Assembly: GCA_016192685.1 (NCBI GenBank)
Contig: JACPTS010000001.1
Span: 529,099-593,098, forward strand
Length of the DNA stretch: 64,000 nucleotides
Direction: 5' to 3'
Source: Candidatus Harrisonbacteria bacterium
GTDB lineage: Bacteria > Patescibacteriota > Minisyncoccia > UBA6257 > 02-FULL-45-10c
A program made the translations under genes and the position numbers. Below are positions 1,123 to 29,283 of the stretch, one piece after another. The first letter of the stretch is position 1. Every line of letters begins with the position of its first letter. The notes below the pieces were generated by a model. It had not been told where the DNA came from. It did no database searches and was given only the letters and a program-made list of their open reading frames with translations.

Positions 1123-1194
1123 GGGCAGTTAGTTTAATGGTAAAACGCTGCATTCACATTGCAGAGAGCATAGGTCCGATTCCTATACTGCCCA
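1123..1194 (+). tRNA. tRNA-Val (anticodon CAC)
   Basis: Manual cloverleaf. Acceptor GGGCAGT/ACTGCCC, D-arm GTTT/AAAC, anticodon stem CTGCA/TGCAG with loop TTCACAT, T-arm ATAGG-TCCGATT-CCTAT, discriminator A, no encoded CCA. Confidence 0.7.
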
Positions 1195-2741
1195 CAAGTA
1201 GTAGCTAAATTGAATATGGCGAGTTTACGGGTGCGGGGGTGACACAAGTAGTCCAACGGTTCGTTTAATACCGCTTGGACTATTTGTTTGTCTCTAATAA
1301 CTAATTTTTTAAAAAATGTTTTTGCCAGTAACGCTTTAAGTTCTGGCGAGGCCTTTTTATAGGCATAGTTGCAGTTTGCGGCCAACGCCAAAGCAATTTC
1401 AATTGTTTTTAAAACATTGGCAATTTTACTCTCTGATTTTGCTAATTCCTCGTTGAGTCTCTTTTCCTCGGTTTCTAAATCCACTTTAACGCTTTGAAAA
1501 AGTTCTAAATCGTTTTCGCTGGCTTTATTATCAATAAGTTGCAAAACAAGATTTTTCTTGCGTTGCTTAATACTTTCAATTTTTCCCAAAATGTCGGCAC
1601 GGGCTTTTTCATAAACTCCCTGCTCATCTTTAAATAAAGTTTTAATTCTATTTCTTATTTTTTCAACAAGGTTATTTGGCAATTGCACCACTTTAAGGAT
1701 TTCTGTGAATTGGTTTAAATAATCATTTTCTTGGCCATAGCTTTGATTACAATTAACCCGCTTACTGTGTTGCGATTTTAGGCAACGCAAATATCTAACC
1801 AAATCGCCATTTTTAAGAGTATGTTCCTCCACTGTCATTTTGCTGCCGCACTCACCGCAAAAAGCAATTGTTTTAAGTATTGAAAATAACCTGCGGTTGC
1901 GGCTACCGCCCCCCAGTCGGGCATCAAGTATTGCTTGTGCTTTTTCAAACAACCCCCTGTCCAAAAAAACTTCGTGCTTGCCGTTGGGGTTAATTAAACT
2001 GCCCCAATCAATAACGCCAATATAAAACTTATCCCGAAGCATTTTAGCTAAAAAACTGGTGTGCATTTTGCCGTTATTCTTTTTATGTTTCCGCAATGGG
2101 AACCCCTCTTTTTCTAAAACTTCAGTAAGGGTAGCAATTGAATAATTGCCAGTCGCAAAAAGTTCAAATGCTTTAATAACCCATTTGGCTTCTTGCCAGT
2201 TTATTTCAACCCACGCCCTAACTTTCCCCGTAGCAACTTTTTCCTGAACATTTTTATAGCCGTAAGGGGCTCGTGTAGGCCACCACCCCTCTTTTAATTT
2301 TTGATACATACCAGATTTAACCTTTTCAGCATTTTGCAAAGAAAAAAACTCAGCCACGGAGGATAGCACTCCTTCAAGCATTTGCCCCGAAGGGGTTTTA
2401 TCAGTTCCTTCGGTGGCCGAGCAAATCCTAATGCCGTGCTGTTCAAGGTCTTTTTTTATCAATGCAAAGTCAATGCGGTTACGAGCCAAACGGCTAATAT
2501 CATAAAATATAACCGCTTTAACGGTTTTGTCAGTTCGGCAACGCTCCCAAAGAACCCTAAATTGCGGGCGGTTGGCAGTTCTGGCACTTTCGCCTGCGTC
2601 AGTGTAAATATCCGTTGTTTCATCAACCCCATAGCCGTTTTGCTTGGCATATTCAAGACAACGCTCTTTTTGGGCGGGAATTGATAATCCTTTTTGGGCT
2701 TGGCGGTCAGTGCTAACTCGCAAGTAAATTAACGCCGTCAT
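1134..2741 (-). CDS. Large serine recombinase (integrase) of an integrative element
   Basis: N-terminal resolvase catalytic domain (ALIYLRVSTDRQ with catalytic Ser, IFYDISRLARN), long C-terminal recombinase/zinc-ribbon region (CGECGSKM...C), 535 aa. The 3' end overlaps tRNA-Val in antisense. Confidence 0.85.
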   Translation of the reverse strand: MTALIYLRVSTDRQAQKGLSIPAQKERCLEYAKQNGYGVDETTDIYTDAGESARTANRPQFRVLWERCRTDKTVKAVIFYDISRLARNRIDFALIKKDLEQHGIRICSATEGTDKTPSGQMLEGVLSSVAEFFSLQNAEKVKSGMYQKLKEGWWPTRAPYGYKNVQEKVATGKVRAWVEINWQEAKWVIKAFELFATGNYSIATLTEVLEKEGFPLRKHKKNNGKMHTSFLAKMLRDKFYIGVIDWGSLINPNGKHEVFLDRGLFEKAQAILDARLGGGSRNRRLFSILKTIAFCGECGSKMTVEEHTLKNGDLVRYLRCLKSQHSKRVNCNQSYGQENDYLNQFTEILKVVQLPNNLVEKIRNRIKTLFKDEQGVYEKARADILGKIESIKQRKKNLVLQLIDNKASENDLELFQSVKVDLETEEKRLNEELAKSESKIANVLKTIEIALALAANCNYAYKKASPELKALLAKTFFKKLVIRDKQIVQAVLNEPLDYLCHPRTRKLAIFNLATTCGQYRNRTYALCNVNAAFYH

Positions 2742-3489: not shown

Positions 3490-3852
3490 CTAATTTTCAC
3501 AAATTTTAATTGTTAATGGCGACTTTACTGCGGTGCGTAATACCACTCCTTTCTTCGCAAAATTAGTAATATAGTTTTGTAAGTAGTCATCCGTTACAGA
3601 GTTTTGGTCATAAACGATTAAAATCCGTCTAACAAATTCCGTGCTCAGCATTTCTTGAAGCTGATTTATCGTGCGGATATTTGCATCACCACATTCTTCA
3701 TCGGCAATACATTCGCTGATGTAAATATCCGTTTCTGGATTTATGTCAAAACCATTTTCCTTTGCGTATTCTAAACATTTCTCTTTTCGTAGCCCCAACG
3801 ATTCTTTGTGAGGCGCACATTTATTTAGGTAAATTAACGCTTTATTTTTCAT
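3490..3852 (-). CDS. Degenerate serine-recombinase catalytic-domain paralog (catalytic Ser replaced by Cys)
   Basis: ALIYLNKCAPHK...KCLEYAKENGFDINPETDIY aligns to the integrase N-terminus ALIYLRVSTDRQ...RCLEYAKQNGYGVDETTDIY, but the S-TDRQ motif is lost. 120 aa. Confidence 0.6.
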   Translation of the reverse strand: MKNKALIYLNKCAPHKESLGLRKEKCLEYAKENGFDINPETDIYISECIADEECGDANIRTINQLQEMLSTEFVRRILIVYDQNSVTDDYLQNYITNFAKKGVVLRTAVKSPLTIKICEN

Positions 3853-3857
3853 ATTTT

Positions 3858-4337
3858 TTAGTTATTAGCCAATATTTGCTTACGGGCATTATTTAATTTA
3901 TTAACAAAGTAATCAGCTTCATTTTGCGGTAATTGCTGCACTATTTCATATAAACTAAATTCTTTATTGTTATTGCTTTCTACTGGTTTTGGCGGCTCAA
4001 GCCGTAAAAGTTCGGCCTGCCCCCTTAAAAGTTTTTGCAGTGCATTCAATGCACCAATTTTGGCATTGCTATTATCCGCCTCACTAAAAACGCACCAGCA
4101 TTCTTTAATTGCCAAATCGTAAGCCAATACCTGATTACAGAAATAGCGGTCAAGGTTTAATTTTTTATTACGATTACCTACTCGCCGTGCGGCCACCCGC
4201 AAATATTCTTTGGCCGTTGCCCAGTTTTTAATTCCAAGCCGCCGCATTATTTGATATGGCTTTTTAACGCCTATTACAAATAAAGCTTCAGTTTCGTCTA
4301 ATAAATATTCTCGGTCTATGTTTTTATGATTGGCCAT
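3858..4337 (-). CDS. Hypothetical protein (island)
   Basis: 159 aa ORF in the leftward island block, no recognisable motif. Confidence 0.35.
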   Translation of the reverse strand: MANHKNIDREYLLDETEALFVIGVKKPYQIMRRLGIKNWATAKEYLRVAARRVGNRNKKLNLDRYFCNQVLAYDLAIKECWCVFSEADNSNAKIGALNALQKLLRGQAELLRLEPPKPVESNNNKEFSLYEIVQQLPQNEADYFVNKLNNARKQILANN

Positions 4338-4535: not shown

Positions 4536-5030
4536 TTATTTGACGGTATTTTCTGGGTTATTCTCTGTAATATTTTGCCCATAATTGCAATTTGTTTTGT
4601 TTGTTTCTACAAATTGATTTGTGGCTTCTGACGGCTGGGCATTGGTTTTGCGTAACAATTCTAACAGTTTAATGACATTTATTTTAAAATGTCTTTTGGG
4701 CGGCACTCCCTCTTTTTTAACCTCTAAAATCCCTAATTGCTTCCATTTTTTAATTGCTGTGTCTTGCTCGCCTCGCGTTAGTTTTGTTTCTTGGGACATT
4801 TCCTTAATGGTTTTATAAATCCACCCGACCTTTTTCCCCTTTTCCCACCAAAAAAGCAATTGCGACATAAATAAACCAGCATTGGCACTTTTAGCTAATT
4901 CTGCCAATAAAGGGTTAAATGCTATAGGTTTTGCGGATAAGGCCTCTAACAATATCCTATTATAATTTTTGGGTAGTTTTCGGGTCATATTTTTTAGATT
5001 TTTTAATTTTTGATAGTGAGCCGTGCTCAC
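4536..5030 (-). CDS. RepA_N / replisome-organiser-like winged-helix protein (putative replication initiator)
   Basis: Motif LFMSQLLFWWEKGKKVGWIYKTIKEMSQETKLTRGEQDTAIKKWKQLGILE resembles RepA_N/DnaD-like N-terminal wHTH domains. Confidence 0.45.
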   Translation of the reverse strand: MSTAHYQKLKNLKNMTRKLPKNYNRILLEALSAKPIAFNPLLAELAKSANAGLFMSQLLFWWEKGKKVGWIYKTIKEMSQETKLTRGEQDTAIKKWKQLGILEVKKEGVPPKRHFKINVIKLLELLRKTNAQPSEATNQFVETNKTNCNYGQNITENNPENTVK

Positions 5031-6170: not shown

Positions 6171-6359
6171 ATGATTTCCAACGAGGCACTAAAAGAATTT
6201 AAGAAAATTTGGCTTGAAGAAAAAGGCACAGAAATTTCTGATGCGGAGGCAATGGATGAAGCATCTAATCTTTTGACTTTGTTCAATGCTGTTTATCGCC
6301 CCGTGAAAAAAGAGTGGCTGGAAAACCAACCAGAGGAAAAAGGAGATAAAAAATTATGA
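6171..6359 (+). CDS. Small hypothetical protein (first gene of cargo operon)
   Basis: 62 aa, acidic. Its stop overlaps the next start (ATGA), consistent with translational coupling. Confidence 0.35.
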   Translation: MISNEALKEFKKIWLEEKGTEISDAEAMDEASNLLTLFNAVYRPVKKEWLENQPEEKGDKKL

Positions 6360-6961
6360 TTATAGACTTCCCAAAAATCAAAGAAAATTTACACAAAGGA
6401 ATGGAAATTTTCTTACGACAAGAAATTAACCGTAAAGCTCCTTTTGCGGCAACGATTGGCAAACACTTCTTTCACGAAGGAGATAAGTCCTCTTACGAAA
6501 CAGTTGACCGTGAAAAAAAAGCTCTTGATTTTAAACGAGGCGAGAGTCAATTTACGGTAACTCGTGATGAAATGAATAAGTTGACCATAAAAGACATAAT
6601 TCAAAAAGTTCAAGGTATCGCAGAAGATATGGCGGGACAAATAGAGCGTAATCTATTCCAAACAATGAACGAAACTATTGAAAAGTCTGGCAATACAATA
6701 CCTGGTAATCCGCCGTTCTCGCCAGAAGCATTTTTGAAGGGTCTGGAAATGGTTGAAATTGATTTTGATGAGGATGACCGCAACAAACCTCAACTTCCCA
6801 CGCTGGTGATGCACCCAGACCTTGCGAAGAAAGCCAAAGAGCAGGAAGCCAATATGACAGCAGAGGAAAAGAAAGCCTTTGACGAAAAGATGAAGGCGAT
6901 GATAGATAAGAAATATGATGATTTTCTCACCAGAGAAGCCAAAAGAAAATTGGTGGACTAA
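6356..6961 (+). CDS. Hypothetical protein (cargo operon)
   Basis: 201 aa, charged/coiled C-terminus, no recognised domain. Confidence 0.4.
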   Translation: MIIDFPKIKENLHKGMEIFLRQEINRKAPFAATIGKHFFHEGDKSSYETVDREKKALDFKRGESQFTVTRDEMNKLTIKDIIQKVQGIAEDMAGQIERNLFQTMNETIEKSGNTIPGNPPFSPEAFLKGLEMVEIDFDEDDRNKPQLPTLVMHPDLAKKAKEQEANMTAEEKKAFDEKMKAMIDKKYDDFLTREAKRKLVD

Positions 6962-8615
6962 ACTCCTCTCCCGCCTTCTTGGAACGAAACCAGCAATTCA
7001 GGAGAGCGTGAAGGAGTCCAACCCGTTTTTGGAGCGAACCATTGAAAATTGGTTAAACTCCGCAAATGAAATGGGTTATTTAATGCCCTTCAGCCAGCTT
7101 CTGTTAAGCGAGGAATTTAGTATTTGTCATACCTCACGTCAAAATGCTTTTGAGCAAGGCAAAGATGTGGTTGCGCTTGATAAGCACGGAAGCTCCCACG
7201 CCTTCCAACTAAAGGGCGGCAACATTACGCATAGCAGATGGCTTAAGGAAGTTAAAGGAGAGATTGAGGAATTGATTGATTTGGCTATTGAGCACCCATC
7301 AGTCAGTAAAGGGAGTAAGCACAAATCTTATTTGGTAACCAACGGTGAATTGGAAGACACGGTGCGAGTGGCGATTGATAATCTTAATTCAAACAAGTGG
7401 AAGGAAAACCCTCTTGAAGTGATTACCTACGGACAACTTTTGAGGGGGTTTGTGGCATTAAGCAATACTTTCGTGCCGCAGAAAGTTGGAAACTATAAAA
7501 CATTCCTTGATTTATACTTCAGCAATGGCGGCGGGTTAATTGACGAAAGGATTTTCTCTGATTTTATCGCTGATGTCTTGAGACTGAAGGAAGACGGTTT
7601 GTTTAAAGAAGAACGGCGAAGAAACGTTGCGGCGGCTGTATTATATACGAGCTACATCCTTGCTCCGTTCAAAAAAGAAAATAATCACATCGCAATCATT
7701 CAAATTCTTACCCTGCTTGGGAGTCATATTATGGCTGTGGCAGAGAAGTTTTCCCTCCCAGAAAAGTATTGGGAAGAATCATTCAAAATCATACAAGACG
7801 AAATTTTCCTTACTGGAGGTAGATTACAGGAAGAAATTACAAACGATGGGCTGGTTACGCTCGTTAATTCAATGTGGGATGGCGAGATTGGTAGTTACAG
7901 AAGGCATCTGGCGGTGAGCTATCTATTCTCCTTCAAGTTAGCTCAACTTTTTGAAAAGAACACTCTGTGGAACAATGCGGTCAATGATGCGTTCTTCGTG
8001 AAGTTAAAAGATTCAATGAAACTGTGGGGCGAAGGCGCAATCTATTCATTGATTGTATGCTTCCTGTATGTGAATAGGGCTTTGAGTAAAAAAGAAGATG
8101 ATAGAGCATTTTCTCCGCTCTTTACTGCCCTTGAGGCAGTCTTAAAATTCAATAGTCCAGATAGTAAATTTGGTTTGTTGTCGCCATATTACGGAATCAC
8201 GTTTGCAATTAAGCGGCGGTATGGACAGCTTGAGGAACCGTTGGATGAAAAGTTCACTGGGCGGTCATTCTTGATACGGTCTCTGATTGACCTTTTGGCA
8301 CGCCACAGTAGGAGGTTAGAGTTGGAAAAGTATTGGAGAGCTATAACACATATAGCCCAAGACAAATTCATTCCTGAAGAATTATGGCAACATTTTACTT
8401 GGCATTGTGATAAGGGCGATAATCAATCCGAGTTTTCCAATCAAACTCAAAGCTGGATAGAGTTAGTAAAGAATGCTAATGCAATTGATTTTGACTCAAT
8501 ACCAAAAACCATTCAAACGCATCTGTCTTTTTTACCTCTTTTTTTACTTGTGTATCCGCACAGAATAAACAGTAATTATATAAAATTTTTAGATGAAACT
8601 GTTAAAAATGCCTAA
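6915..8615 (+). CDS. Large hypothetical protein with possible N-terminal PD-(D/E)xK-like nuclease motif (cargo operon)
   Basis: 566 aa. GKDVVALDKHGSSHAFQLKGG fits a D...(E/Q)xK pattern. The rest appears helical. The true start is uncertain because of a 46-nt +1 overlap with the upstream ORF. Confidence 0.4.
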   Translation: MMIFSPEKPKENWWTKLLSRLLGTKPAIQESVKESNPFLERTIENWLNSANEMGYLMPFSQLLLSEEFSICHTSRQNAFEQGKDVVALDKHGSSHAFQLKGGNITHSRWLKEVKGEIEELIDLAIEHPSVSKGSKHKSYLVTNGELEDTVRVAIDNLNSNKWKENPLEVITYGQLLRGFVALSNTFVPQKVGNYKTFLDLYFSNGGGLIDERIFSDFIADVLRLKEDGLFKEERRRNVAAAVLYTSYILAPFKKENNHIAIIQILTLLGSHIMAVAEKFSLPEKYWEESFKIIQDEIFLTGGRLQEEITNDGLVTLVNSMWDGEIGSYRRHLAVSYLFSFKLAQLFEKNTLWNNAVNDAFFVKLKDSMKLWGEGAIYSLIVCFLYVNRALSKKEDDRAFSPLFTALEAVLKFNSPDSKFGLLSPYYGITFAIKRRYGQLEEPLDEKFTGRSFLIRSLIDLLARHSRRLELEKYWRAITHIAQDKFIPEELWQHFTWHCDKGDNQSEFSNQTQSWIELVKNANAIDFDSIPKTIQTHLSFLPLFLLVYPHRINSNYIKFLDETVKNA

Positions 8616-8777
8616 TTGGCGACACTCATTAAGTTGGCCGCCGCCAATCGATTAAAGCAATTCTCAAACAAAATACGCTGGTATTCGCTTAATTTTTGCG
8701 ATAATGTATTGATGTATTCAATTAGTGTCCTGTTAAGCCCACCAAAATTAAAAAAGCTTCGTTAAACGAAGCTTTTT

Positions 8778-9449: not shown

Positions 9450-9710
9450 TCCTTTTAAATTTTTATTTTAAATAACCTTTTTAAGGTTATTCTATTTTTA
9501 TGAAAATCACAAGTCTAATCAGGCGAAATTCCAGGGTGTGGATAACCTGCGGATAAAAAAGCCATTTTAGCTTTATTTTTTAGCCTATTTTGGCGCTGGC
9601 TGGCATTGTTAAATTTTTAATCCAAGTGGGGTACAATTAAATGGTAGTGGGGAATTGTGGATAAGTATGGGGATAGAGCGTCAATCAGGGGATAAGTTCC
9701 ACTCGCTGTA

Positions 9711-9842
9711 CCTTTCTTTCTATCGGCACCGGCGTCGCTTCGCTCCAGCGGCGAAGCGCGCCTACGCCTCGCTCCGAAAATTTTCGCTTCGCGAAAAACC
9801 AATCTTTTTGGAGCTCCGTAGTTGCCGTACAAAAGAAAGGTA
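9711..9842 (+). repeat. GC-rich palindromic repeat element, family A, copy 1
   Basis: Core cggcaccggcgtcg...cgcctacgcctcgctccgaaa...ttcgcttcgcgaaa...ggagctccgtagttgccg with terminal inverted repeat acctttct/agaaaggt. Sits at the right edge of the integrative element. Confidence 0.7.
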
Positions 9843-21059: not shown

Positions 21060-21207
21060 GATAGCTCTGCATATCTGCCTACCGGCACCGGCGTCGTTTC
21101 GCTCCTGCGGCGAAACGCGCCTACGCCTCGCTCCGAAATTTTCGCTTCGCGAAAGCCGAGCATTTCGGAGCTCCGTAGTTGCCGCACGGCAGATATCCAG
21201 AGCTATC
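21060..21207 (+). repeat. GC-rich palindromic repeat element, family A, copy 3
   Basis: ccggcaccggcgtcgtttcgc...cgcctacgcctcgctccgaaattttcgcttcgcgaaa...tttcggagctccgtagttgccg with terminal inverted repeat gatagctctgcatatctgcc/ggcagatatccagagctatc. Confidence 0.75.
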
Positions 21208-26677: not shown

Positions 26678-27066
26678 ATAAACTTAAAAAAATATTAAGC
26701 AAAATGAAATCAGATGGAAAACCAGTCTGGCTATTTGCTTTTTTAAAAATGGATGAAATTATAGATAAATGGTCTTTAGTTATTTCTGCGCCTTGGATAA
26801 ATGAACAAAATCGTGATCAAGAATTTGAATATATTATCAATTTGTTAAAAGAAAATCTTAATGGCGAAGAATTATCTTCAATAGCTCGTATTAGTGTTTT
26901 GGCTAAAGATAGTCATTTAAGTCAAGAATTAATGAAGAAAAAAACAGGTGATTTAATAAAGGAAGAACAAATAAATGGCAACATTATTCACGAAGGTCAA
27001 ATATTGGAATCAAGCGTTGAGGCGCAGTGGCCATCAAATAATTTATTTGCTAAACAATCAAGTTAA
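26671..27066 (+). CDS. Hypothetical protein (overlapping partner of the HEPN-like gene)
   Basis: 131 aa. Overlaps the upstream gene by 7 nt. AT-rich. Confidence 0.3.
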   Translation: MVDKLKKILSKMKSDGKPVWLFAFLKMDEIIDKWSLVISAPWINEQNRDQEFEYIINLLKENLNGEELSSIARISVLAKDSHLSQELMKKKTGDLIKEEQINGNIIHEGQILESSVEAQWPSNNLFAKQSS

Positions 27067-27079
27067 ATTTACTTTTATA

Positions 27080-27192
27080 AAAATTTTCTGCTAATCTATA
27101 CCAAAACCGGCGTTATATTTTTTAAATAAAATTAATCAAACCGAGTCAAATCAGTTTATTATCGCAAAACCTGCCCTTGGCAGGTTTTGCGT
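27080..27192 (+). repeat. Intergenic repeat module, copy 1 (partial: ttctgctaa-ctataccaaaaccggcg plus terminal hairpin)
   Basis: Shares the ttttctgctaatctataccaaaaccggcg segment and the hairpin cgcaaaacctgcc-cttg-gcaggttttgcg with the modules at 27969 and 29087. Confidence 0.6.
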
Positions 27193-27289
27193 CAGATTAT
27201 TTTATGATAAAATTTATAGATTAAATTTATGTGTAAATCCGAAAATAATTTTGCTTATATTGACGGCGCTAATTTGCATAAAGGCATAT

Positions 27290-27350
27290 TGAAGGTCTAA
27301 AAAGAAAAAGCCCCCGGCGGATACGGATTCCGCAGGGGTCTTTTTCGTAG
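27290..27350. terminator. Bidirectional terminator-like hairpin
   Basis: aaaaag-cccc.ggcgga...tccgcagggg-tcttttt. Confidence 0.45.
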
Positions 27351-27426
27351 TGATACTTATACTATAGCATATTCAATGTTGAAGTCAATTGGGTGTTTTA
27401 GGAATAGTTTATATAAAATATAATTT

Positions 27427-27957
27427 ATGCAAATACCCAGACGGAAGTCGGAAGAACTTAGGAGGAAAGTTGAGGGGCCGATTCATATAACTGAAGAGGG
27501 TTTTAAGCGCCTGAAAGAACGGCTGGCGCATCTTAAACTTGCGCTGCCTGGCTATATCGTTGAGACGCAACGGGCCGCCGCATTCGGCGATCGGTCGGAT
27601 AATGCTGAATATAAAGATGCAAAATCAAGATTAACCCGCACGCACTTACAAATTTTAAGAATTCAGGATCAAATTAAGCGGGCGGTGATAATTCCTTCGG
27701 GTCAGAATACTTCTGGCTCGGTCCAGCTCGGTTCCACTGTTATATTGCGGGCCGAAGGCCTCGAGTATTCCCGAGGGGCAGGTGAGTCGCGGAAAACTTT
27801 TCAAATTCTTGGCGCGCATGAAACCAATCCAACTTTAGGGCGTATTTCATTTCAGTCGCCGCTCGGTGCCGCGCTTATGAATCACAAAAAAGGCAATGCC
27901 GTCACAATCCAGACCCCAACCGGTCCCCAAAAATATATTATTTTAGAAATTAAATAA
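27427..27957 (+). CDS. greA: Transcription elongation factor GreA
   Basis: GDRSDNAEY motif and a C-terminal FKBP-like domain. 176 aa. Confidence 0.85.
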   Translation: MQIPRRKSEELRRKVEGPIHITEEGFKRLKERLAHLKLALPGYIVETQRAAAFGDRSDNAEYKDAKSRLTRTHLQILRIQDQIKRAVIIPSGQNTSGSVQLGSTVILRAEGLEYSRGAGESRKTFQILGAHETNPTLGRISFQSPLGAALMNHKKGNAVTIQTPTGPQKYIILEIK

Positions 27958-27968
27958 ATCATTCGGTA

Positions 27969-28095
27969 AAAATTCCCTTTCCTGAAAATTTTCTTTTTGG
28001 TTATCTTCTCTAATTGTATCGAATGATTGAATAGTTTCAAAAATAAAATTTGCCCTTCTAAAAATTTTCTGCTAACCTATACCAAAACCAGCGGC
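27969..28095 (+). repeat. Intergenic repeat module, copy 2 (approximately 125 bp)
   Basis: aaattccctttcctgaaaattttctttttggtta(t/c)cttctctaattgtatcgaatgattgaatagtttcaaaaataaaatttgcccttctaaaaattttctgctaacctataccaaaacc is near-identical to 29087-29212. Confidence 0.8.
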
Positions 28096-28173
28096 AAAAA
28101 TAGCGTTTTTGCAATACAGTTATCCACCAAAGTTATTTATTACAGGTTAGTTATTATAGATTATCCGCAACAT

Positions 28174-28199
28174 TCTAACATTCTGCAGAATGTTGGAAT
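28174..28199. promoter_or_regulatory. 26-bp palindrome (candidate ArsR-family operator), upstream copy
   Basis: ttctaacattctgcagaatgttGgaa, with 1 mismatch from a perfect palindrome, overlapping the regulator start. Confidence 0.6.
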
Positions 28200-28495
28200 G
28201 TTGCGGGAGTAATGATATAGTGAAAATTATGAAAACGCCGAAACAACTAGAAAGACACTTTAAGGGGGTAGCCAATCATTGGCGGATCGCGATTTTATCA
28301 ATCGTGCATCAAAATGAGGGGATTGCGGTTGATGGCATCACGAAAGAGCTTAATGCGAATTTTAAAACCATTTCCCAACACACTAGATCATTGGTCCAAG
28401 CCGGCCTTTTGAATAAAAAATATCTCGGCCGCCAAGTAACCCACACCCTCTCGCCTTACGGGAAACTTTTTCTTAAATTTATTAAATCATTCTAA
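28190..28495 (+). CDS. ArsR/SmtB-family HTH transcriptional regulator
   Basis: HWRIAILSIV...GIAVDGITKELNANFKTISQHTRSLVQAGLL wHTH. 101 aa. Confidence 0.7.
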   Translation: MLECCGSNDIVKIMKTPKQLERHFKGVANHWRIAILSIVHQNEGIAVDGITKELNANFKTISQHTRSLVQAGLLNKKYLGRQVTHTLSPYGKLFLKFIKSF

Positions 28496-28515
28496 CATTC
28501 TGCAGAATGTTAGAA
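28490..28515. promoter_or_regulatory. Perfect 26-bp palindrome, downstream copy
   Basis: ttctaacattctgcagaatgttagaa, which is its own reverse complement. Overlaps the regulator stop. Confidence 0.65.
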
Positions 28516-28677
28516 TAAAGTTTCTAAAGATAAAATTCCCTTTCCTGAAAATTTTTTGCAGCGGGGTTAAAATTTTTCAAAACATTCTCAAGTGTGTAAG
28601 GATGTTATTTTTAATATAAAATTCTTTTGCCTGAAAATTTCCGCCTGTTATGGATTAAAGAATGCTAGAATAAACAA

Positions 28678-29076
28678 ATGAGAACTTATCAGGAATTTTA
28701 TCAGAGCATCCAGAAACCATTTTTTTCTCCGCCGGAATGGGCGTTCGGGTTGGCGTGGGGGATTATTTATCCGCTGATTGTGGTTGCTGGAATATATTTG
28801 ATTTATCTGGTTTATAAAAAACAAGCGCCGAAAAGTTTACTATGGGTTTTTCTTGCAAATTTGGCCGCGAATCTTTTATTTACTCCAATTCAGCTTGGTT
28901 TGAAATCGCTTTGGCCGGCGTCAGTTGTTATTTTAATAATTTTAGGAACTTTGGCTTTTTTTGAATATAAAATCCGGCTTCATTCCAAATTGATTTTTGT
29001 TTTGCTTTTGCCTTATCTTTTGTGGGGCGCATTTGCCACTGCGCTTCAGCTGTCAATCACCCTTTTAAATTTTTAA
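28678..29076 (+). CDS. TspO/MBR-like tryptophan-rich membrane protein (short)
   Basis: KPFFSPPEWAFGLAWGIIYPLIVVAGIYLI matches the TspO KPxWxPP...VWxxLY signature. 132 aa, about 4 TM helices. Confidence 0.5.
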   Translation: MRTYQEFYQSIQKPFFSPPEWAFGLAWGIIYPLIVVAGIYLIYLVYKKQAPKSLLWVFLANLAANLLFTPIQLGLKSLWPASVVILIILGTLAFFEYKIRLHSKLIFVLLLPYLLWGAFATALQLSITLLNF

Positions 29077-29086
29077 TTTAAATAAA

Positions 29087-29283
29087 ATTCCCTTTCCTGA
29101 AAATTTTCTTTTTGGTTACCTTCTCTAATTGTATCGAATGATTGAATAGTTTCAAAAATAAAATTTGCCCTTCTAAAAATTTTCTGCTAACCTATACCAA
29201 AACCGGCGCTACAATTTTTAATAAAATAACCCAAATTAATCAGATAATTCGCAAAACTTGCTTCCGCGGCAGGTTTTTTGTCA
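29087..29283 (+). repeat. Intergenic repeat module, copy 3 (full: approximately 125-bp core plus terminal hairpin)
   Basis: Near-identical to 27969-28095 and extends through cgcaaaacttgcttccgcggcaggtttttt. Confidence 0.8.

Follow-up and report, generated by a model that had tools for sequence, protein, structure and literature searches.

The window analysed here (the whole 64,000-nucleotide stretch of DNA) carries, inside an apparent tRNA-integrating element, a small ORF that we show to be a genuine, selected protein-coding gene, neither an artefact nor a decaying relic. Its product is shown, at the level of sequence homology, to be a paralogue, old and evolving fast, of the catalytic core found in this element's integrase family, although the donor copy cannot be identified. 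We propose, with a probability of about 0.4, that this protein acts as a non-catalytic accessory subunit or modulator of the integrase of the element. The two genes on which the argument turns are the following:

3490-3852, minus strand: stand-alone catalytic-core paralogue, an ATG-started ORF of 120 aa in the ORF list (stop included), predicted as β1-αA-β2-αB-β3-αD-β4-β5 and lacking αE
1134-2741, minus strand: large serine integrase of 535 aa whose active site is intact (YLRVSTDRQ, R58, R84, R87)

Origin of the small protein and loss of catalytic residues

The preliminary description had presented the 120-aa protein as a duplicate of the recombinase N-terminal domain that aligns with the adjacent integrase. 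The alignment stood. BLASTP against the integrase gave an E value of 9e-12 (38% identity, residues 5-82 versus 3-81), and hhalign, with the two small proteins combined into one profile and 73 family integrases as the target, gave a probability of 98% and an E value of 1.4e-13 over 103 columns (small-protein positions 1-109 versus integrase positions 1-110). The adjacency is looser than described, with the integrase 749 bp downstream on the same strand, behind a 256-nt structured non-coding stretch and a 162-aa ORF. As to the duplication, the small proteins are 25 to 34% identical to integrases of the clade over ~105 positions and 29.5% identical to the neighbouring one; being no closer to its neighbour than to others, the small protein is a paralogue of the family and not demonstrably the neighbour's copy.

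An HMM specific to the N-terminal domains of the integrase clade matches the small protein (E 7.6e-7), and an HMM of the small protein matches 60+ family integrases with 25 to 41 bits (30 bits for the neighbouring integrase). The search against the resolvase family proposed earlier was silent with the generic model, since Pfam-A hmmscan of the 120-aa protein found no family at E<=0.1 (Resolvase PF00239 included), but this silence was overturned by the family HMM and by hhalign. Apart from serine recombinases, no family, motif or structural match of the small protein was found in Pfam, PHROGs, NCBIfam or the PDB: NCBIfam matched neither the 120-aa protein nor its orthologue, a PDB sequence search with the 120-aa protein gave no match, and its sole PHROG match (E 0.079) was rejected as noise. 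With tblastn, no other integrase-like piece was found near the small gene and no integrase remainder downstream of it. Moreover, AlphaFold2 run on the small protein alone with an integrase-containing alignment predicts a resolvase-like α/β core (β1-αA-β2-αB-β3-αC/D-β4; pLDDT 79.8, pTM 0.75), and with the two small proteins only it predicts the same topology plus β5 (pLDDT 67.5).

Catalytic positions were compared at integrase residues that show little or no variation across the 73 integrases:

Integrase R8: N in the window protein, S in the orthologue
Integrase S10 (nucleophile): C (Cys12) in the window protein, C (Cys12) in the orthologue
Integrase Q14: K in the window protein, E in the orthologue
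Integrase D48: S in the window protein, T in the orthologue
Integrase R58: I in the window protein, M in the orthologue
Integrase R84: S in the window protein, S in the orthologue
Integrase R87: D in the window protein, D in the orthologue
Integrase S108: T in the window protein, gap in the orthologue
Integrase E111: K in the window protein, gap in the orthologue

The earlier observations that Ser is replaced by Cys and that TDRQ is lost were both borne out, Cys12 being aligned to the nucleophilic Ser10 and 'APHK' standing where the integrase has 'TDRQ'. Moreover, none of the catalytic arginines (integrase R8, R58, R84 and R87, corresponding to R8, R45, R68 and R71 of gamma-delta) is kept in the small proteins, and the replacements S10 to C, R84 to S and R87 to D are the same in both. 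Since the similarity ends at about integrase residue 110, αE is missing; the small protein has no DNA-binding domain, its predicted models ending with β4/β5. The Ser nucleophile, the Arg cluster and αE are all indispensable to serine recombinases, and αE is the main dimer/tetramer helix in resolvase structures. Hence, lacking Ser, catalytic Arg, αE and both DNA-binding domains, the small protein cannot cut or join DNA and was rightly called catalytically dead.

A sequencing error at the nucleophile position, considered in the preliminary description, is excluded. Codon 12 of the small gene reads TGT (Cys) directly in the DNA, the identical 120-aa protein (labelled "hypothetical protein" in the public record of a Candidatus Harrisonbacteria MAG, CPR/Parcubacteria) occurs on 8 contigs from at least 4 sequencing runs, and the 17 contigs on which the orthologue was read likewise encode Cys there.

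The pocket residues Lys11-Cys12, Glu47-Cys48, Glu52, Cys54 (Glu-Cys-Gly motif), Ser85 and Asp88 are identical in both orthologues, and the cysteines are largely shared between them (4 of 5 in the window protein, 4 of 4 in the orthologue). Judging by fold topology, these conserved residues would all lie on loops at the C-terminal edge of β1-β3, i.e., in the former active-site crevice. The β2-αB loop has a net charge of -4 in the small protein versus 0 in the integrase, and the crevice looks rebuilt rather than decayed, from a basic pocket to an acidic, Cys-rich one.

Among 1.84 billion representative proteins searched exhaustively with HMMER, there was one true homologue, P0002 (113 aa, about 44-45% identity, E 2e-14); the other match, P0003, was rejected as a spurious repetitive protein. 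When 5.8 billion proteins were searched by word index, using either the single sequence or the profile built from both, nothing emerged beyond the query and this one orthologue. P0002 is encoded in a sister element (L006 and others) at the same position as the window gene, in the order replication/regulation genes, P0002, conserved non-coding element, membrane protein and integrase, and the L006 integrase is 84% identical to that of the window. In both elements, the small gene is the last before the RNA motif and the membrane-protein/integrase operon.

The two small genes have diverged beyond the reach of blastn. Both ORFs are nevertheless intact, with homologous starts (MKxKAxIYLxKC) and ends, despite 55% amino-acid divergence. 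Codon-position identities of the pair are 0.57/0.75/0.39 (positions 1/2/3), dN is 0.43 with dS saturated, and the integrase pair has a dN of 0.10 and a dS of 1.14, so that the dN of the small protein is ~4 times that of the integrase. The codon-position identities, the open frames with homologous ends and the conserved pocket residues show, as far as this one pairwise comparison reaches, that the small protein is under purifying selection; with only two orthologues, all conservation arguments rest on that comparison. The orthologue gene is invariant in 10 of 10 contigs, and within-lineage dN/dS was thus not usable.

The element, its RNA motif and its relatives

The small gene appears to sit within a 7,547-bp element integrated in a tRNA gene (att core 1190-1195 to 8737-8742), with the following further features:

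1123-1195, plus strand: tRNA-Val(CAC), the integration target (ARAGORN, Rfam), with the attL core GCCCAC (1190-1195) at its 3' end
1204-1216, plus strand: integrase-proximal terminal inverted repeat GCTAAATTGAATA, a putative P' half-site, the motif being also found in L006
2745-3233, minus strand: predicted membrane protein, 162 aa, with an N-terminal hydrophobic segment
3288-3424, minus strand: structured RNA motif, 137 nt, between the small gene, which it directly follows, and the membrane-protein/integrase operon
3858-4337, minus strand: 159-aa ORF, no family match in Pfam, PHROGs or NCBIfam
4536-5030, minus strand: replication-initiator-like gene (phage O-like/DnaD-like), matching PHROG 9773 (E 3.7e-29) and related families
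8715-8742, plus strand: distal element end, with the inverted-repeat motif TATTCAATTAG (8715-8725) and the attR core GCCCAC (8737-8742)

The integrase has the Pfam domains PF00239 Resolvase (6e-32), PF07508 Recombinase and PF13408 Zn_ribbon_recom, matches the PHROG 'integrase' family at 2e-89 and counts 212 family members at E<=1e-30. The stop of the 162-aa ORF lies 3 nt before the integrase start, which places both genes in the same operon; the 162-aa protein has no family match in Pfam, PHROGs or NCBIfam, and its counterpart in L006 is 29% identical and also has an N-terminal hydrophobic segment. On the other side, the stop of the 159-aa ORF lies 5 nt upstream of the ATG of the small gene, suggesting translational coupling. 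The replication-initiator-like gene suggests that the element may exist both integrated and as a replicating circle.

The 13-nt terminal inverted repeats are common to the window element and L006 (GCTAAATTGAATA, with its complement at 8715-8725), and the distal 31 nt are conserved in L070-L072. Joining the outer flanks restores tRNA-Val, CCA and a terminator (the empty site, with the reconstructed attB AGAGCATAGGTCCGATTCCTATACTGCCCACCAAAATTAAAAAAGCTTCGTTAAACGAAG), and joining the inner ends yields a ~50-bp imperfect palindrome, typical of a serine-integrase attP (reconstructed attP ATGTATTCAATTAGTGTCCTGTTAAGCCCACAAGTAGTAGCTAAATTGAATATGGCGAGT). A displaced tRNA-Val fragment in the form of a long direct repeat was sought and not found, the att core being only GCCCAC. 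The 3' end of the integrase gene runs through tRNA-Val on the opposite strand; since the ORF thus crosses attL, its product has one C-terminal tail in the integrated form (535 aa, of which the last 16 come from the opposite strand of the tRNA) and another in the predicted excised form (558 aa). The integrase 3' end overlaps an opposite-strand tRNA-Ala in six relatives (L006 8367-8438; L071 6082-6153; L072 11548-11623; L073 8690-8765; L075 9354-9425; L076 4195-4266), and the consensus C-terminus of the integrase family, '...GPxxxRT...', corresponds to the tRNA T-arm read in reverse. Cargo at 6356-8615 (opposite strand; ORFs of 62, 201 and 566 aa) has no significant match in Pfam, PHROGs or NCBIfam. 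Other genes occupy this place in sister elements, L006 having a GIY-YIG protein and L072, L073 and L077 restriction-modification genes, so that the cargo slot is variable.

The RNA motif has three nested stems, and its apical loop GGGGCAGCC pairs with the 3' tail GGCUGUCCC, which is followed by a U-run; this pairing could form a pseudoknot or an alternative terminator. The motif is 86 to 92% identical between the window and L006, while the neighbouring genes have dS>1, and its fold z-score is -6.0. A covariance model built on the motif locates further copies, each upstream of an integrase, in L070, L071, L072 and L073, all without the small gene, and the motif lies 0.5 to 0.8 kb upstream of the integrase in at least 6 element lineages, four of them without the paralogue. 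The copies are as follows:

L006, 5887-6023: RNA motif copy
L011, 1796-1932: RNA motif copy
L070, 7886-8009: RNA motif copy
L071, 4106-4249: RNA motif copy
L072, 9356-9498: RNA motif copy
L073, 6490-6634: RNA motif copy

Across seven sequences, aligned by fitting to the model (which favours structure), 23 of 43 pairs covary with both sides changed and 96.9% of cells pair, versus 40 to 46% in slid-partner controls. The many G-U pairs place the motif on the integrase strand. It has no Rfam family, and could serve the integrase operon as leader or attenuator. Its presence in elements devoid of the small protein indicates that the RNA does not depend on that protein.

Repeats were also seen elsewhere in the window. 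A ~125-nt GC-rich repeat occurs at 9705-9830 and 21064-21187 (86% identity, 11.4 kb apart), both copies lying upstream of plus-strand genes and having no Rfam match; it forms a hairpin with one compensatory change (GCGCTTCGC/GCGAAGCGC versus GCGTTTCGC/GCGAAACGC), and the Logan contig L001 breaks inside it, at 9790. Between small ORFs at 27060-29226 lies a cluster of direct repeats, comprising a 144-nt unit present twice (92%; 27950 and 29065), a 33-nt unit TTCTAAAGATAAAATTCCCTTTCCTGAAAATTT present six times and a 71-nt unit present three times, which may be repeated promoter/leader regions of a small gene family.

Of the related elements, which the preliminary description proposed to check for the same integrase-paralogue pair, L006 carries it. 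Nine further elements (L069-L077), with integrases 53 to 68% identical to that of the window, were compared; L069 was left out because its integrase starts at contig base 77, with no upstream DNA. The other eight, with 2.6 to 10 kb of upstream DNA each, contain no second ORF resembling the small protein or the N-terminal domain, and hence the integrase family does not need the small protein. The small gene is confined to two sister lineages, accompanying the two most closely related integrases (84% identical) and missing beside the eight that are 53 to 68% identical. Viral contigs contained neither a relative of the small protein nor a copy of the RNA core, and scans of metagenome and genome contigs with the integrase found one close relative (the sister element) and distant gut integrases without a paralogue. 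In two unrelated loci, short ORFs that resemble the N-terminal domain and lie just upstream of serine integrases were considered and rejected, at L057 7251-7601 (117 aa, an integrase gene fragment) and at L063 9048-9779 (244 aa, an active-type small resolvase); since the catalytic Ser is retained in each, neither is an analogue of the dead paralogue.

Possible roles of the small protein

Resolvase catalytic domains use core-to-core contacts in regulatory synapses. As a modulator, the small protein would dock on the integrase through the hydrophobic face bared by the missing αE or, alternatively, through core-to-core contacts like those of resolvase regulatory synaptic complexes. Once docked, it would damp recombination or bias its direction, and could in this way influence whether the element is integrated in tRNA-Val or present as a replicating circle; the conserved Cys/acidic pocket may make docking metal- or redox-dependent. 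Given that RDFs are small, element-encoded and drawn from unrelated folds (PMC11795197, PMC12286644), the recruitment of the integrase's own domain is plausible. The homology and fold, the identical replacements, the purifying selection, the same position in both elements and the independent assemblies all speak for a modulator. Weighing against it are the absence of the principal oligomerisation helix αE, the binding of all validated RDFs to the DBD2/coiled-coil junction and not to the catalytic domain (PMC12286644), the eight related elements that do without the gene and the higher dN of the small protein (0.43 versus 0.10 for the integrase); the missing αE and the eight elements also count against the simple dominant-negative version put forward earlier. 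We are more doubtful of the idea that the integrase family "scavenged" its own catalytic core as a regulatory subunit, an αE-less domain with its basic pocket turned into a Cys3/acidic one, which would dock on the integrase and gate integration or excision of a CPR integrative plasmid, possibly in a metal/redox-responsive manner.

Nearly as likely as an integrase modulator is a new role independent of the integrase, a tentative explanation in which the resolvase-like core would have been exapted into a small protein that binds a metal or ligand or responds to redox state, bearing a Cys3-plus-acidic site at the C-terminal edge of the sheet, and that serves some other function of the element, e.g., replication control, host interaction or binding of the adjacent RNA. 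Such a role is consistent with the conservation of the substituted pocket residues Cys12, Cys48, Cys54, Ser85 and Asp88 next to an acidic loop, and with the retention of nearly all cysteines (4/5 and 4/4) at 45% overall identity. It also fits the location of the small gene at the end of the replication/regulation block, outside the integrase operon, the functioning of the integrase family elsewhere without it, and the precedent of the inactivated poxvirus F16, which has no recombinase partner (PMC4304020). However, the small protein matches nothing but serine recombinases, the clustering of its cysteines is a prediction from fold topology, and the RNA motif is also present in elements without the small protein. 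It is improbable that the ORF is a relic, i.e., the remaining 5' part of another integrase gene that has degraded (e.g., from a former tandem insertion), still open by chance. Its restriction to two sister lineages, its fast evolution and the lack of an integrase remnant downstream, as expected after deletion, would agree with this, and integrase N-terminal fragments do adjoin serine recombinase genes elsewhere (e.g., L057 7251-7601), but the frames are open with homologous ends despite 55% amino-acid divergence, codon position 2 is far more conserved than position 3 (0.75 versus 0.39), and the two orthologues share replacements at former catalytic positions. We give next to no credence to an active enzyme, whether a cysteine-nucleophile recombinase or one with a misread Ser codon: Cys is one nucleotide away from Ser and could in principle serve as nucleophile, but TGT is read on 8 contigs from at least 4 runs, the orthologue has Cys on 17 contigs, R8, R58, R84 and R87 are all lost, and neither αE nor a DNA-binding domain is present.

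If the small protein is indeed a modulator of the integrase, it would add a mechanistically new class to the accessory factors, that of a decoy pseudo-enzyme descended from the recombinase. A self-scavenged regulator of this kind would be a first for large serine integrases twice over, as a directionality or inhibitory factor derived from the integrase itself and as one that works via the catalytic domain and not via the DBD2/coiled-coil junction. Should its role be unrelated to the integrase, it would be the second exaptation of a resolvase fold after poxvirus F16. Serine integrases are widely used genome-engineering tools, for which direction control is the main practical limitation. The distribution over two lineages limits the general importance of the small protein. 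Moreover, CPR mobile elements are poorly known, and this one is a compact and tractable integrative element (7.5 kb, with reconstructable attP/attB, a replication initiator and an RNA motif).

Comparison with known systems

The closest known relatives are the PF00239 domains of large serine integrases of the CPR/Patescibacteria tRNA-targeting clade, to which the small protein is homologous, below the Pfam threshold. Unlike the integrase catalytic domain, it is devoid of Ser, catalytic Arg, αE and the recombinase and zinc-ribbon/coiled-coil domains, and its pocket is acidic and Cys-rich where that of the integrase is basic.

Poxvirus F16/OPG061 is, as reported in the articles that cite the original work, predicted to be a serine recombinase without catalytic activity (Senkevich, Koonin and Moss 2011, cited in PMC4304020, PMC11980589). 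Like the small protein, it is homologous to serine recombinases and conserved despite the loss of its catalytic residues, implying exaptation. Unlike the small protein, F16 is a nucleolar protein of ~230 aa from a eukaryotic virus with no active recombinase partner, whereas the small protein is no more than a 120-aa core, encoded by a bacterial element next to an active integrase of the same family. A BFVD Foldseek comparison of the small protein with OPG061 gave probabilities of 0.84 to 0.98 with weak E values (0.038 to 0.057) and TM of 0.45 to 0.56, below active recombinases. F16/OPG061 is an analogy and not a matter of membership, with no specific sequence relationship apparent. The literature searched on inactive serine-recombinase paralogues and CPR integrative elements yielded nothing beyond F16.

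RDFs activate recombination of attL with attR and inhibit that of attP with attB. They vary between related integrases, and none is universal across integrase families. Like the small protein, the RDFs Bxb1 gp47, phiC31/TG1 gp3 and SPbeta SprB are small and encoded in the element of their integrase. Known RDFs have unrelated folds and bind the DBD2/coiled-coil junction (PMC12286644, PMC11795197), having been "scavenged" from diverse folds (PMC11795197). Unlike the small protein, none is described as derived from an integrase catalytic domain (PMC12286644, PMC11795197), in agreement with the preliminary description, according to which such a paralogue is not a standard accessory of serine integrases. 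The literature searched offered no example of a stand-alone, αE-less paralogue of the catalytic core within a serine-integrase element.

Truncated derivatives of transposases and recombinases recur as regulators, as in Tn5 Inh, IS1 InsA, IS911 OrfA and the P-element KP. These non-catalytic derivatives modulate their parent enzyme, and offer a "works like" analogy for the favoured mechanism, in which the small protein would modulate the integrase. They arise from the same gene as that enzyme (by an alternative start, the absence of a frameshift or an internal deletion) and usually keep a DNA-binding or multimerisation part. The small protein, unlike these truncated regulators, is the product of a separate, highly diverged gene and consists of the catalytic core only, without the multimerisation helix.
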